A stretch of 64,000 nucleotides of DNA from a virus (lineage: Duplodnaviria; Heunggongvirae; Uroviricota; Caudoviricetes), in the IMG/VR virus record IMGVR_UViG_3300024518_005076; one strand, 5' to 3'. The notes beneath the pieces were generated by a model. It was not told the origin of the DNA and searched no databases. It worked only from the letters and a program-made list of their open reading frames with translations. Position 1 is the stretch's first letter. Every line of letters begins with the position of its first letter. The position numbers were made by a program, and so were the translations under genes. Of this stretch, positions 45,890-54,539 are shown piece by piece.

Positions 45890-46987
45890 ATGGATAAGAT
45901 TCAAGAAATGACACCTGAGCAAGAACAGCAAATGGTTGAGTTCAGGGAAGAGTACCTTCAGATTGGACTGTCTACCGAACCCGCCAACAGAGAACTGGCA
46001 GAACAGGCCATTCAGTCAATCAGATCCAAGGCCCACAAGGAGTGCTCATCCTTCATGTGGTTCGACGGGATAGCGACAGCAGAATTATTCTTAAATATCG
46101 GGGCCAATCTCTGGGACAATCTCGGGGACAATCTCTGGGCCAATCTTAGTGACAATCTCGGGGCCAATCTCGGGGACAATCTCTGGGCCAATCTCAGGGC
46201 CAATCTCAGGGCCAATCTCTGGGCCAATCTCGGGGACACTCTCTGGGCCAATCTTAGTGACAATCTCGGGGACAATCTCTGGGACAATCTCGGGTCCAAT
46301 CTCGGGGCCAATCTCAGGGACAATCTCAGGGACAATCTCGGGTCCAATCTCGGGGCCAATCTCAGATTACACAGTCAGCTCGAAGGGCAAATGGAGTATT
46401 GGATTGCGTGGTACATGTTTCCTCATAAATTCCTGAGGAACATTCATTCGGATTCCGACATGGAACATTTGAATGAGTGGGACTCAGTATTCCGATCGTG
46501 CTGCTGGTGGTGGCCATACGAAAACACCACAATTGTTGCCGAAAGGCCCGCCTCGATCGTCAGAAACGAAGAGGGATTGCTGCATAATGAATCTGGACCT
46601 GCAATCTCGTGGCGAGATGGTTGGGAACACTTTGCCTTGGAAGGCGTTAATCTGGATCGTCAAATCGTCATGGCTCCTGAGTCTCAATCGGTACAACAAT
46701 TGGAATCAGAAGAAAACGAAGAGGTGCGTAGAATCAGAATCGAGCGATTTGGGGTTCTGCGGTATCTGGAAGAGTCTAACTCATCAGTCGTAGATACTCG
46801 TCGCAACGACATCGAAGCCACTTTTGAAATACTGGCCAATACGCCAAATGGCCAGCGATTAGTCACACACTGTCCCTCTACGGGAAGGCGTTATTTCCTT
46901 TCTATCCCAGAGCAGGTCGAAACCTGCGAACAGGCACAAGCTGTCCTGTGGGATGATCACGACATGAGAATTATAGGGAGAACGTAA
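45890..46987 (+). CDS. Protein with about 22 tandem tetrapeptide repeats ([AD]NL[GWRS]) followed by a Trp-rich globular domain (365 aa)
   Basis: 12-nt DNA tandem repeat 46101..46366 stays in frame; AAAGGAGAC RBS. Confidence 0.6.
   Translation: MDKIQEMTPEQEQQMVEFREEYLQIGLSTEPANRELAEQAIQSIRSKAHKECSSFMWFDGIATAELFLNIGANLWDNLGDNLWANLSDNLGANLGDNLWANLRANLRANLWANLGDTLWANLSDNLGDNLWDNLGSNLGANLRDNLRDNLGSNLGANLRLHSQLEGQMEYWIAWYMFPHKFLRNIHSDSDMEHLNEWDSVFRSCCWWWPYENTTIVAERPASIVRNEEGLLHNESGPAISWRDGWEHFALEGVNLDRQIVMAPESQSVQQLESEENEEVRRIRIERFGVLRYLEESNSSVVDTRRNDIEATFEILANTPNGQRLVTHCPSTGRRYFLSIPEQVETCEQAQAVLWDDHDMRIIGRT
46101..46366 (+). repeat. Tandem 12-bp repeat array (about 22 units: gccaatctctgg / gacaatctcggg variants) inside a CDS
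   Basis: Directly visible periodicity. Confidence 0.85.
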
Positions 46988-48662: not shown

Positions 48663-48842
48663 ATGCTCGTACTCAGTAGAAAGCCAAATGAACAGATCGT
48701 GATTGCGGATGGCGAAATCGTGATCACGCTACTTGAAATCAGAAAAGGATCAGTCAGACTGGGGATCGAAGCACCTCGTGATATCCCGGTTCACAGGCGA
48801 GAGGTGCAGACAATCATTGAATCTGAGGAGAAGGTGGCATGA
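48663..48842 (+). CDS. csrA: CsrA/RsmA-family RNA-binding regulator homologue (59 aa)
   Basis: 'MLVLSRKPNEQIVIADGEIVITLLEIRKGSVRLGIEAPRDIPVHRREV' tracks CsrA consensus incl. GxxxRIGI/APxxxxVHRxE; AAAGGAG RBS. Confidence 0.75.
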   Translation: MLVLSRKPNEQIVIADGEIVITLLEIRKGSVRLGIEAPRDIPVHRREVQTIIESEEKVA

Positions 48843-51787: not shown

Positions 51788-52108
51788 ATGTCAACGCAGG
51801 ATTTCGGCACTCCGGAAGTAGTCACGGAAACCGTCACCGTGGAGAACGTCAAGATCCTTGTGATCAACAACGCCGGAAACGGCTTTGCTGACTTCAAGAC
51901 GTTCCCGGCTGGGACCAAGTACGTGGACATCTTCAAGCAGATCATGCCTGAAGGTGCGAAGCCGGAGGATTACTCCATCCGGGTCAACAAGAACCTGGTT
52001 TCCACTGAGGACGGTGCCACTCATGGTGACAACCTGTCCATCACCAGTGCCGTCGCCAACCCGAACGATCGCCTGACGGTCGCTCCGAAGAAGGTCGCTG
52101 GAGCGTAG
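51788..52108 (+). CDS. Candidate ubiquitin-like beta-grasp protein (ThiS/MoaD-like, 106 aa) with C-terminal extension ending ...KKVAGA
   Basis: 'YSIRVNKNLVS' and 'HGDNLSIT' align to the MoaD/ThiS penultimate strand and L-DGD-h-h motif; first gene of E2-JAB-E1 cassette; AAAGGGGAAC RBS. Confidence 0.45.
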   Translation: MSTQDFGTPEVVTETVTVENVKILVINNAGNGFADFKTFPAGTKYVDIFKQIMPEGAKPEDYSIRVNKNLVSTEDGATHGDNLSITSAVANPNDRLTVAPKKVAGA

Positions 52109-52225
52109 TCGCTGCTTCTGGGGGCTGGAATTTCCGGCCCCCAGACTTTGGAGCTTCCTGGGGATACCAGAGAGGTTCGATTCCTCCGGCTCCACTTCAC
52201 GTACCTCTAATCAGGAGACCTAATT

Positions 52226-53416
52226 GTGCTACACGAAATTATTCCTGCGACCCCGCGATTAGTCGAAAAGCTTGTAGCGAGAGAGAGGGATCCCGCAAGA
52301 ACAGATCCACTACTGTGGGAAAAATCAGAAGACACTGAGATGTATATAGAAATAGCATCTCGCGAGACGGCCAAGCTGGTTTCCAGCGTAGATGTCATGC
52401 AGAGGAAAATCAGGGCGTTAAACGCAACACAGAAGCCATCTTTCGGGAAAGCTCTAAGAGATTCTGCATATACTGCCTATAACGACGCAAAGCATCAATT
52501 GGATGAGGCTTACTACAACCTAACCTCGTTCAATATACCCGAACGTCGCAGCAGCCCGGTCGCTCGGACCAACAACACCAAGAAGATTTCGTATCTGAGC
52601 AACTCCGACTTCATAGAGCAGGAAAAGGTGATGATACACCGCTCATATAAGACGGTGTTCATCACAACAGAACCAATCGTAATCGAAAACATCAACCTTG
52701 GTGCTTTTGAGATTCATGTCAGGCCACGTGTTGACTCGACAGCAGAGGCATACGCACTCAACCCCAACCCGGCAATCAGCAATCCAGTCGTTACCCACCC
52801 GAATGTGAAGAATAACACTGTCTGCCTGGGCGAAGGTAAAGATGCATACAACAAGGCCGTTATGGAAGGGCGTCTTTGCGATGCACTGCAAATTGCCTTA
52901 TCCGTCGTGAGAAATTACGGGTGGAGAAATCCCTACCTGTCTATTAGCGAATGGTTTGGAGTCAACTGTGGATTCTGTGGCCACTTGAATACACCAAATA
53001 GAACATTTCAGTGCATCGACTGCAAAGTAAAGGGATGCAAAACCTGCGCTTACACAGGGACTGCTCGAAGATGCTACGAGTGCCATGAGTACAGGCTGGC
53101 CAATCCTCCAGACGAGTGCTACAGGTGCAGTCGAGAGGCTCATAATGAATGCCCGGACTGCAAGAAGAAAGTCTGCGGGAGATGCTGGATCGAAGATTCC
53201 TGCAATCTCTGCTATCGCAGAAACAATCAAGCCTGCAACAGGTGCGAGCGTGTCACCCGGATAGACACGTGGCCAGATCCGTGTGCTGGATGTGAGGTAC
53301 GTTTATGTGCTCTATGTATGGAGCACGGAGTTTTGTGTCCTACGTGCTATCAGGGTCACCTCAATGAGAACCCGGATGTGGCACGACTTATTGGGAGTCT
53401 GCGAGATGACGACTAA
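52226..53416 (+). CDS. E2-like (UBC-fold) protein with C-terminal array of about 12 CxxC pairs (396 aa); GTG start
   Basis: 'VVTHPNVKNNTVCLGEG' = HPN motif with Cys 7 residues downstream (H at 52796, Cys codon 52823..52825); AGGAGACC RBS; paralogue of 55498..56847. Confidence 0.6.
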   Translation: MLHEIIPATPRLVEKLVARERDPARTDPLLWEKSEDTEMYIEIASRETAKLVSSVDVMQRKIRALNATQKPSFGKALRDSAYTAYNDAKHQLDEAYYNLTSFNIPERRSSPVARTNNTKKISYLSNSDFIEQEKVMIHRSYKTVFITTEPIVIENINLGAFEIHVRPRVDSTAEAYALNPNPAISNPVVTHPNVKNNTVCLGEGKDAYNKAVMEGRLCDALQIALSVVRNYGWRNPYLSISEWFGVNCGFCGHLNTPNRTFQCIDCKVKGCKTCAYTGTARRCYECHEYRLANPPDECYRCSREAHNECPDCKKKVCGRCWIEDSCNLCYRRNNQACNRCERVTRIDTWPDPCAGCEVRLCALCMEHGVLCPTCYQGHLNENPDVARLIGSLRDDD

Positions 53417-54539
53417 CAACAAACCTGTGTTCTCTCCGTCTGCATGGCAGAAATACATTCTGCTTCGAGACATGGGGGGCACTGAGATTTCCGCGATGGC
53501 GATCTGCTTTGACCCCGACGAACCGCTGAAAATCAACGATCTCTACGTGCCCGAGCAAACATGCAGCTCGGCCTACACTGAGTTCGATGACGACGCCTTG
53601 AGTGAGCTGTACGAGATGTATGGCCCGCAGATCGACCCGGATGACGACACCAAGCTCACCGGTCTGCATCCTTATCAGTTCAGCCGCATCTGGCTGCACA
53701 CTCACCCAGGTCAGAGCGCAAAGCCTTCAGGGACCGACCACACCACATTCAAGGAGCGGTTCGGGCCTCCAGACTGGGCAGTTATGTTCATTCTGGCACG
53801 TGGGGGACAAACCCATTGCGAGCTTAAGGTTCGCAGTGAATCCGGTCTTGTTAACGCTCATGTCAGGCACGATTCCAGTGAGTGGGTCGACTGGAGCATG
53901 CCGTGCGTTCCGGTGAATCATGATGAATTGAAGGAAATCTACAAGAAGAAAGTAAAAACCAGCCACGCGGCGGTGTCTTACGGCGGTGCGTGGAATGGCG
54001 GACACTCCTACACCACTCGTGGGGGCAAGCCAGGATACTACGCCAATGGAAAGTGGACCGAGTATGGGACTCAAGGGAAGTCCAACCAGACCGGCACAAA
54101 GAAGATTGAAGTTAACCAAAGAAACCAGAGAGAGCCACTCGACTTTGGCGACCTGGAATGGAGATACAAGCGTGAAGACCACTTCATGAAGCAGTATCTC
54201 CAGGATGTTTACGTGGACATCAAGACATGGGGAAATGCTGCCGACGTCATGAAGAGAGATGACTTTGAAGAAGTTTGGGCTCCGGACGACCAGGACTTCG
54301 CAATGTGGATGGACCAGAAGTGGCTCATGGGTCGAGATTGCAAAATCGAATTCATCGACGAGAGCGAAGATGGAGAAGAGACCATATGGGAATGCTCTGC
54401 CCAGGAAGCGCAGATGCTTGTCCAGAAGAAAGTCATCGAGGACACGGACTTCGGAGAGTTTTTCGGTGCAGACAAAAAGGATGACGAAGACGATGAGGAA
54501 TTGGATTTCTCTTTCCCTGGTCTGCACATGTGGCAGTAA
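53406..54539 (+). CDS. JAB/MPN (JAMM) metalloprotease-domain protein with about 200-aa C-terminal extension and acidic tail (378 aa)
   Basis: JAMM signature 'HTHPGQSAKPSGTDH' (HxHx7Sx2D) at 53697..53741 with upstream Glu; start overlaps stop of E2 gene (coupling). Confidence 0.65.
   Translation: MTTNNKPVFSPSAWQKYILLRDMGGTEISAMAICFDPDEPLKINDLYVPEQTCSSAYTEFDDDALSELYEMYGPQIDPDDDTKLTGLHPYQFSRIWLHTHPGQSAKPSGTDHTTFKERFGPPDWAVMFILARGGQTHCELKVRSESGLVNAHVRHDSSEWVDWSMPCVPVNHDELKEIYKKKVKTSHAAVSYGGAWNGGHSYTTRGGKPGYYANGKWTEYGTQGKSNQTGTKKIEVNQRNQREPLDFGDLEWRYKREDHFMKQYLQDVYVDIKTWGNAADVMKRDDFEEVWAPDDQDFAMWMDQKWLMGRDCKIEFIDESEDGEETIWECSAQEAQMLVQKKVIEDTDFGEFFGADKKDDEDDEELDFSFPGLHMWQ

Follow-up and report, generated by a model that had tools for sequence, protein, structure and literature searches.

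Organisation of the phage cassette

The window that we analysed is a stretch of 64,000 nucleotides from a tailed phage (Caudoviricetes; IMG/VR record IMGVR_UViG_3300024518_005076), with genes for a major head protein, a portal protein, ParB and methyltransferases. According to our analysis of sequence and gene order it also appears to contain a conjugation cassette, composed of a ubiquitin-like modifier (Ubl), an E2-like protein, a JAB protease, an E1-like enzyme and a second E2-like protein, whose relatives seem to form a multi-copy four-gene operon of Planctomycetota. The genes of the cassette are the following:

51788..52108, plus strand: Ubl gene, 106 codons and a stop, with its ATG at 51788
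52226..53416, plus strand: E2-like protein a (396 amino acids), with an N-terminal coiled coil, a central alpha/beta core and a C-terminal CxxC array
53406..54539, plus strand: JAB/JAMM metalloprotease (377 amino acids), catalytic domain at about residues 1-150, start as called on contig L001
54576..55439, plus strand: E1-like adenylating enzyme (287 amino acids, or 284 when read from 54585), a single ThiF/MoeB-type domain
55498..56847, plus strand: E2-like protein b (449 amino acids), a paralogue (29% identity) of E2-like protein a that contains VTHPNIKNDAIC and has its Cys-rich array expanded

A preliminary description of this DNA took the Ubl for the weakest link of the cassette, crediting it with a long C-terminal extension and a Gly-Ala end in place of Gly-Gly. 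In our analysis this link holds: we deal with a true Ubl, and the unusual end is a trait conserved across its family.

The Ubl gene and its family

An AGGGG ribosome-binding-like site stands 5' of the ATG, and the open reading frame (ORF) closes with the codons GCT GGA GCG TAG, that is Ala104-Gly105-Ala106-stop. A word-indexed search of 5.8 billion proteins returned five close homologues, of which one is an identical protein, present on contigs that reach 99 kb, and the other four have 63-76% identity. When 1.84 billion cluster representatives were searched by profile, 192 relatives came up at E<=1e-3 (16 at E<=1e-10). Because the close homologues are conserved and so many representatives are found by profile, the ORF is real and no chance reading frame. 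In the genome scan, made with one genome per species, there were 458 Ubl relatives, and nearly all of the best 80, whose loci we studied, lie in Planctomycetota, often several per genome. The E2-like gene was found by tblastn at 72 of these 80 loci, JAB at 67 and E1 at 56, always just downstream of the Ubl and in the same order; short contigs probably explain most of the missing genes. Taken together, we are highly confident that ORF 51788..52108 is the ubiquitin-like modifier of the phage cassette. It had been suggested earlier that this ORF might not be the Ubl, and that the Ubl might lie elsewhere or be absent. We reject this option because only one ORF of the window, searched as six-frame translations, matches the Ubl family; the predicted beta-grasp fold and the conserved synteny speak against it as well.

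The family to which the Ubl belongs is large, of beta-grasp type and apparently undescribed. Queried alone, the Ubl had no match in Pfam, PHROGs, PADLOC, NCBIfam or PDB, and the links to known proteins come from family profiles only. Pfam ThiS (PF02597) was matched by 20 of 57 family members, with a best E value of 1.4e-7, and the family profile reached MoaD (2q5w) at E 1.6e-3 as well as PF1061, another MoaD and SAMP2. In the alignment with MoaD the conserved family Pro falls on MoaD residue 72 of 77, and therefore the family Gly falls on the terminal Gly of MoaD. In distant relatives the family consensus reads hhhINNDGGGFAD ... DYLIRVNRQP ... L.EGDRVSITPTKIEGA.

With MoaD and ThiS as the nearest in fold and as the sole links at the level of sequence, and with an E1 of the minimal ThiF/MoeB type, one could think of a sulfur carrier, or of a non-covalent MoaD/ThiS-type beta-grasp adaptor that is not conjugated to proteins. 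We regard this as very improbable. Genes for sulfur transfer or cofactor synthesis (MoaE, ThiG, a rhodanese) were not seen in the cassette or its conserved flanks, a JAMM protease and a Cys-bearing protein with an HPN motif are constant companions of the Ubl, the family includes poly-Ubl architectures, and the cassette is borne by a phage.

Poly-Ubl members keep the end of the single-domain proteins at their joints: among 15 multi-domain representatives, 12 retain the full tail at internal junctions (...EGA-A-KVLF...), in a polyubiquitin-like manner. Tandem Ubls of two or three domains (P0006-P0029; L087 7749-8429; L088 7764-8438) retain P-x-K-[IV]-x-G-A internally.

Duplication of the last strand

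The layout of the Ubl, with the elements of its C-terminal part, is given below (HMM stands for profile hidden Markov model).

Residues 1-19 (51788-51844), plus strand: N-terminal extension
Residues 20-72, plus strand: beta-grasp strands 1-4 and the helix
Residues 73-94, plus strand: insertion
Residues 95-100, plus strand: strand 5
Residues 101-106, plus strand: tail
52022..52045, plus strand: first copy of the last-strand motif, H79-T86 (HGDNLSIT), at canonical HMM positions 82-91
52064..52087, plus strand: second copy of the last-strand motif, N93-P100 (NDRLTVAP), seen as the second HMM domain, in the MAFFT alignment and as strand 5 of the model
52085..52105, plus strand: canonical tail P-K-K-V-A-G-A, seen in column statistics and invariant in the five close homologues
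52100-52102, 52103-52105 and 52106-52108, plus strand: codons of Gly105 and Ala106, and the stop

The 19-residue N-terminal extension is a feature of phage-type Ubls, with M1, Q4, F6, G7 and P9 invariant (M..Q.FG.P); most chromosomal single-domain members of the family are without it.

The preliminary description counted exactly 20 residues (SAVANPNDRLTVAPKKVAGA) C-terminal to HGDNLSIT, and this count is right. What these residues are turned out to be different. An HMM built from 20 canonical family members matches the phage Ubl twice: residues 14-87 correspond to model positions 19-91, and residues 91-106 (NPNDRLTVAPKKVAGA) to model positions 82-97 (qegdRvsitpvKiega). Because of this double match we read the segment as the last-strand motif duplicated in tandem, to which the usual tail P-x-K-[IV]-x-G-A is attached. 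The alleged extension thus consists of a linker (SAVA), a second copy of the motif and the ordinary tail of the family. In a MAFFT alignment of 57 members NDRLTVAPKKVAGA lines up with the family terminus GDRVSITPTKIEGA and residues 73-90 become an insertion. Such an insertion with a repeated motif is common to about 11 other representatives, for example LTDGDRVIVA...LQDGDRVTVSPVNVKGA.

A structure prediction, proposed earlier as the way to examine this ORF, gave a beta-grasp fold, in the AlphaFold2 model and by fold search. The model, made from the 57-sequence alignment (predicted local distance difference test, pLDDT, 71.7), has strands at residues 20-27, 33-40, 62-66, 69-72 and 95-100 and a helix at 45-52, in the order beta-beta-alpha-beta-beta-beta, with a C-terminal tail leaving the last strand. 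Residues 91-100 are modelled with a mean pLDDT of about 83, and residues 76-80 below 50. After the final strand there remain six residues, KKVAGA, a tail that in the model would be normal for a Ubl. On this evidence from HMM, MAFFT and AlphaFold2 the long extension gives way to a duplicated last strand and an ordinary short tail, and the earlier comparison, by which MoaD-like proteins end about 7 residues after the strand, had been applied to the wrong copy. The phage Ubl is then a ThiS/MoaD-type beta-grasp protein with an N-terminal extension, a strand duplication and a short Gly105-Ala106 tail.

Two points weigh against the duplication being read in this way: the insertion 73-94 is modelled at low confidence, and deletion of either copy leaves similar canonical HMM scores, 68.5 bits without the second and 60.4 bits without the first, by which the structural copy does not appear decidable from sequence alone. 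An alternative, which we hold to be unlikely, would make HGDNLSIT the true final strand and the next 20 residues a long flexible tail, with a pseudo-strand, threading into E1 or JAB. The main domain of the canonical HMM is indeed collinear over the first copy (residues 14-87), the construct that lacks the second copy is the one with the higher score, and the first copy is conserved in the close homologues, where H79, D81, L83, I85 and T86 are invariant. However, AlphaFold2 builds strand 5 from the second copy, the most confident block of the C-terminal half, and gives little order to the first copy; it is the second copy alone that runs on into the conserved tail P-x-K-[IV]-x-G-A; and E1 enzymes require a short and fixed distance between strand 5 and the C-terminus.

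The Gly-Ala end as a family trait

The statistics of the C-terminus were taken from 117 cluster representatives, pairwise at most 50% identical and anchored on the tail motif. Conservation in the tail columns is high (P 95%, K 86%, I/V 90%, G 93% with Ala as the remainder), and it extends one residue further: all 117 have a residue after the Gly, which is Ala in 79% and Gly in 13%. Beyond it the second position is occupied in only 78 of the 117 and is random (3.8 bits), and overhangs past Gly-Ala comprise from 0 to about 50 unconserved residues. Among the five close homologues T97-A106 (TVAPKKVAGA) is invariant, and the proteins finish with GA or GAM, two of them having the single Met after Ala. 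The phage Ubl itself lacks a C-terminal Gly-Gly and ends in Gly-Ala, just as noted earlier, and the observation holds for the family at large, for which the Gly-Ala end appears from these columns to be a conserved hallmark.

Enzymes of the cassette

The catalytic motifs appear intact in the JAB, E1 and E2-like families. In JAB the motif E...H-x-H-x7-S-x2-D is formed by E27, H98-T-H100-PGQSAKP-S108-GT-D111 and is invariant in 13 sequences. Pfam Prok-JAB recognises the phage copy weakly (E 1.2e-3; 19.1 bits for a cutoff of 25) and a chromosomal copy at 2.1e-5; the nearest solved sequences are Rpn11 (E 4e-3) and a Caldiarchaeum protein (E 0.03), both weak matches. At its C-terminus the phage JAB is extended by about 230 amino acids, which Planctomycete homologues lack.

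The E1 is matched by Pfam ThiF over residues 22-202 at 4.5e-22 (78.8 bits vs a cutoff of 28.1). It carries GxGAxG, DFD and CVD motifs, conserved Arg residues and an invariant Cys173 in a GxC173T motif, at about what we take to be the position of the loop Cys of ThiF/MoeB. Profile matches in PDB include PaaA, MoeB, Uba1, MccB, UBA5, ThiF and BubCD. Compared with the Planctomycete copies, which are of about 215 amino acids, the phage E1 has 44-50% identity. An acidic tail of about 70 amino acids (DDYDDDDWDREREEDRW) is present in the phage E1 and absent from its Planctomycete homologues.

The E2-like proteins have an HPN motif followed by a Cys, in E2-like protein a within VTHPNVKNNTVC of the core, where the Cys is Cys200, and in E2-like protein b within VTHPNIKNDAIC. 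An alignment of 23 sequences of this family gives THP[HN]V..LC.G.G and about 8 CxxC pairs as invariant, with HP[HN]-x6-Cys spacing and with H, P and C unchanged throughout. Motif and synteny are the grounds on which we assign these proteins to E2, and from them a UBC fold may be supposed. In hhalign the motif fell on the HPN...C of UBE2D2 at an E value of only 0.18; the structure model was shallow (2-4 usable homologues) and poor, and both fold searches were dominated by the coiled coil. The Cys-rich part gave weak profile matches to HOIP RBR, FYVE, B-box and TRAF RING, and it is possibly a built-in E3.

The phage has two E2-like paralogues vs one in chromosomal operons, and the Cys-rich array of E2-like protein b is roughly twice as long. 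Most chromosomal E2-like proteins (alignment A4) end, after a low-complexity linker, in a conserved ...H..x.LG[EQ]xx[LV]P-A, which both phage copies lack.

Which residue is activated

We propose, as the best mechanism and with a probability of roughly 0.5 by our own estimate, that JAB removes Ala106 and that E1 then activates Gly105. The Ubl would be made as an inert precursor with Ala106 as its cap, and the adjacent JAMM protease would cleave the Gly105-Ala106 bond. The small homodimer-type E1 would then adenylate Gly105 and load it on its conserved Cys, as a Cys173 thioester, and the Ubl would be handed on to the Cys of either HPN-motif E2-like protein. The multi-zinc modules fused to these proteins may pick the targets, to an amine of which the Ubl would be joined, and the two paralogues could serve two sets of targets; the same JAMM protease might be able to reverse the mark. 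Every enzymatic step here, the cleavage position and the E2 fold we infer from motifs and synteny. Of the earlier proposal that the adjacent JAB processes a precursor, maturation as such remains as the best-supported mechanism, with the difference that one residue would be removed and no long propeptide.

Ala106 as a cap is favoured because the MoaD alignment sets the family Gly on the terminal Gly, and because in a few members the Gly is followed by Asn, Ser, Gln, Val or Arg, which suits a removable cap better than it suits an acyl donor. Such residues occur in about 8% of the representatives, two of which end there (KIDGN, QVKGS). To our knowledge eukaryotic ubiquitin genes never end at Gly-Gly, by which an obligatory cap would be unsurprising. 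There are also precedents. An exact one is BilA of E. aridi, in which BilC cleaves the bond between Gly97 and Ala98; in the complex with E1 its Ala98 occupies the ATP site and blocks the binding of ATP (PMC10557695). The pro-ubiquitin of Caldiarchaeum is matured by an Rpn11-like JAMM (PMC5654768).

Several features of the C-terminal statistics weigh against removal of the Ala. The residue after the Gly, with an entropy of 1.19 bits, is conserved far above what is usual for a discarded residue, and 39 of the 117 representatives end exactly at it, none at the Gly; no Ubl copy ending at Gly occurs among the 80 genomic copies either. A residue that is universally present, together with the absence of Gly ends, is the pattern that one would expect of a mature Gly-Ala end. 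It may also be, though we give it clearly less weight, that Gly-Ala is the mature reactive C-terminus, equivalent to Gly-Gly, with no processing needed and Ala106 adenylated by E1 directly; JAB would then trim those relatives that have residues past the Ala and would remove conjugates. In this form the atypical conjugation chemistry considered in the preliminary description stays as a serious rival. Conservation stops after the Ala, with Ala or Gly in 92% at the first position and randomness at the second, and tail lengths counted from the Ala decay from zero (39, 21, 21, 2...), as for non-functional overhangs, without any ends at the Gly. A precedent exists in Cap2, an E1-E2 protein whose substrates end in Gly or Ala: the E. 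cloacae CD-NTase (cGAS/DncV-like nucleotidyltransferase), with an Ala end, is conjugated, and a substrate with Gly mutated to Ala still works (PMC10097602), while Cap3 cleaves behind the Cap2 substrate's C-terminal residue (10.1101/2022.03.31.486616). Against a mature Gly-Ala end stand the same 8% of Gln, Val, Ser, Asn and Arg, terminal residues of a type that abolished conjugation in the Cap2 system (PMC10097602), and the MoaD alignment, in which Gly and not Ala takes the terminal position. The sole characterised beta-grasp Ubl that ends in Gly-Ala is cleaved between the two. We know of no beta-grasp Ubl with an acyl donor other than Gly, which counts against it too.

Distribution and genomic context

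For the scans of loci the canonical subset alignment (A3) was used, the broad alignment (A2) being without a sufficiently conserved stretch. Four IMG/VR viral contigs (L085-L088) carry the cassette in the same order, and in two of these the Ubl has three domains. Nothing was found when a viral scan was made with the alignment of close homologues, and there was no Ubl relative in GenBank phages, where only distant ThiF-like genes (27% identity) were seen, in Flavobacterium and Bacteroides phages. In two viral contigs with multi-domain Ubls (L087, L088) a second E1 homologue lies about 3 kb upstream. It was considered that the chromosomal copies may lie within related prophages, and this was rejected: within 7 kb on either side the phage shares with them the cassette genes only.

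Upstream of about 17-22 of 43 full-length chromosomal cassettes, on the same strand and at a distance of about 1-6.5 kb, there is a DUF1257 protein and a classic AAA ATPase (PF00004, E 8e-27; example region L011 2814-6055, loci L003-L082). Two proteins with no significant Pfam match also precede chromosomal cassettes, and a large serine recombinase is found near 7 loci. None of these flanking genes, DUF1257 and the AAA ATPase included, occurs in the phage window.

The spacer between the Ubl and the first E2-like gene, and more distant parts of the window, hold further features:

52117..52145, plus strand: stem-loop with a 13-bp stem (one G-U pair) and a 3-nt loop, 9 nt past the Ubl stop
52171-52195: AGAGGTTCGATTCCTCCGGCTCCA, resembling the T-arm and 3' acceptor strand of a tRNA or tmRNA (transfer-messenger RNA)
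45890-46987: 365-amino-acid protein with a long run of five-residue repeats (NLGDN LWANL SDNLG ANLGD ...)
48663-48842: small CsrA-like protein (MLVLSRKPNEQIVI...)

Folding of the spacer (52100-52230) gives -57 kcal/mol with z = -3.74. The stem-loop has no U-tract and was not called by the terminator scan, and it may, as an attenuator or by stabilising the transcript, set how much Ubl is made relative to the enzymes. A tRNA in the spacer was considered and rejected, with none found by ARAGORN in the whole window and with only a partial cyano_tmRNA match in Rfam (E 0.58); the element at 52171-52195 may be an attP-like remnant or a product of chance. The repeat protein has a mirrored repeat ORF on the opposite strand and matches phrog_31813, for which no function is known. 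The CsrA-like protein is recognised by Pfam CsrA on the identical contig L001 and is also present on the related L083.

Significance

According to our analysis we deal with a compact ubiquitination-like system, which would combine a ThiS/MoaD-like Gly-Ala Ubl, a fusion of an HPN E2-like protein with a multi-zinc module, an Rpn11-like JAMM and a minimal E1, and which is abundant and multi-copy in Planctomycetota and carried by phages as well. The earlier worry, over the length of the tail and an end other than Gly-Gly, is for the most part settled, the tail being ordinary and Gly-Ala having precedents, and the question that remains is which residue is activated. The choice between Gly105 and Ala106 as the acyl donor bears on how strict the need for a terminal glycine is in Ubl pathways. 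We may even suggest, as a tentative thought that we would sooner bet against, that the whole family conjugates via its C-terminal Ala by means of a stand-alone minimal E1 and E2-zinc-finger fusions, and that the phage uses its two E2s for tagging proteins of the host or of rival phages. What benefit a phage draws from a complete conjugation machine is a question raised by this finding, since the related Bil systems act against phages. In the literature that could be searched we met no description of the Planctomycete/phage family; a 2014 review cites Burroughs et al. 2011 for Planctomycete Ub-like operons, so a prior mention is possible.

Comparison with known systems

One close counterpart is the type II BilABCD system (CEHH/6C) of Ensifer aridi (PMC10557695), with which the cassette shares the gene order Ubl, E2, JAB, E1, a single beta-grasp Ubl with a conserved Gly followed by Ala (Gly97|Ala98 in BilA, where the additional Ala prevents adenylation) and the existence of relatives with up to three beta-grasp domains. 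The four phage genes begin at 51788, 52226, 53406 and 54576, in the Bil order, to which the phage adds a second E2-like gene. In the family studied here the Gly is conserved (93%) and the overhang variable, yet the first residue after the Gly is itself conserved and always present, whereas in type II Bil post-Gly residues are not conserved. The Ubl has no detectable sequence similarity to BilA, and homology to BilA-D was not detected, with no Bil chain in the PDB profile searches of Ubl, E2 and JAB or among the 60 E1 matches listed. The Bil E1 is built of an inactive and an active adenylation domain (IAD and AAD) with an inserted Cys domain (PMC10557695), in contrast to the one adenylation domain, of about 215-287 amino acids, of the E1 studied here. 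The E2-like motif THP[HN]V-x4-LC-E/x-G-x-G is without the CEHH spacing of type II Bil, as far as CEHH can be compared by the description in that paper, and unlike BilB the E2-like proteins have a coiled coil and a multi-zinc C-terminus. The hosts differ as well, being Planctomycetota and their phages here and Rhizobiaceae for type II Bil.

Type I (ISG15-like) Bil, too, is a set of four genes arranged in this order, with a reactive C-terminal Gly that is conserved, and a minority of its Ubls have overhangs of 2-9 residues (10.1101/2023.09.04.556158). Its BilA, however, is made of two ubiquitin-like domains and has, as a rule, the Gly for its last residue (10.1101/2023.09.04.556158), and type I Bil is a host defence that tags the phage tail fibre, whereas the present cassette sits in a phage.

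With type II CBASS (an anti-phage signalling system based on cyclic oligonucleotides) and its Cap2/Cap3 (PMC10097602; 10.1101/2022.03.31.486616) the cassette has in common an E1-type adenylation domain and a JAB protease; the reactive C-terminal residue may there be Gly or Ala. Of 31 PADLOC matches of the phage E1, the 25 best were all to Cap2-type E1-E2 models. The CBASS substrate, though, is a CD-NTase and no beta-grasp protein, and E1 and E2 are fused there and separate genes here; a cyclase or an effector was not found among the cassette genes, and neither these nor the adjacent ORFs scanned against Pfam include a nucleotidyltransferase.

The Bub system (6E/DUF6527; PMC11601596) is likewise a bacterial pathway of Ubl, E1 and E2, in which Ubls have one to three domains. 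It works through Tyr/Ser oxyesters and a DUF6527 serine protease (PMC11601596), whereas here the E1 and the E2-like proteins have an invariant Cys and the protease is a JAMM; a match to DUF6527 was not found.

MoaD/ThiS carriers and archaeal SAMPs provide the best fold matches, the only profile matches and the same P-x(4)-G tail geometry, and have a minimal ThiF/MoeB-like E1. They differ by the Gly-Gly end, by the absence of an E2 and of the strand duplication, and by having no dedicated protease in the operon, some JAMM-linked variants excepted.

In the compact operon of Caldiarchaeum subterraneum, which has an E1, an E2 and a zinc-finger E3 (PMC5654768), a pro-Ubl is matured and deconjugated by an Rpn11-like JAMM, as is proposed here. 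Caldiarchaeum has a true ubiquitin that ends in Gly-Gly and has a 9-residue propeptide, whereas the phage Ubl is ThiS/MoaD-like; its E2 is recognised by Pfam and its RING protein is separate and small, whereas the zinc module here is fused to the E2-like protein. On the grounds of sequence and synteny, the phage and Planctomycete system appears to stand outside Bil, Bub and type II CBASS, and yet it would work like Bil or like the Ubl conjugation of the Caldiarchaeum type.

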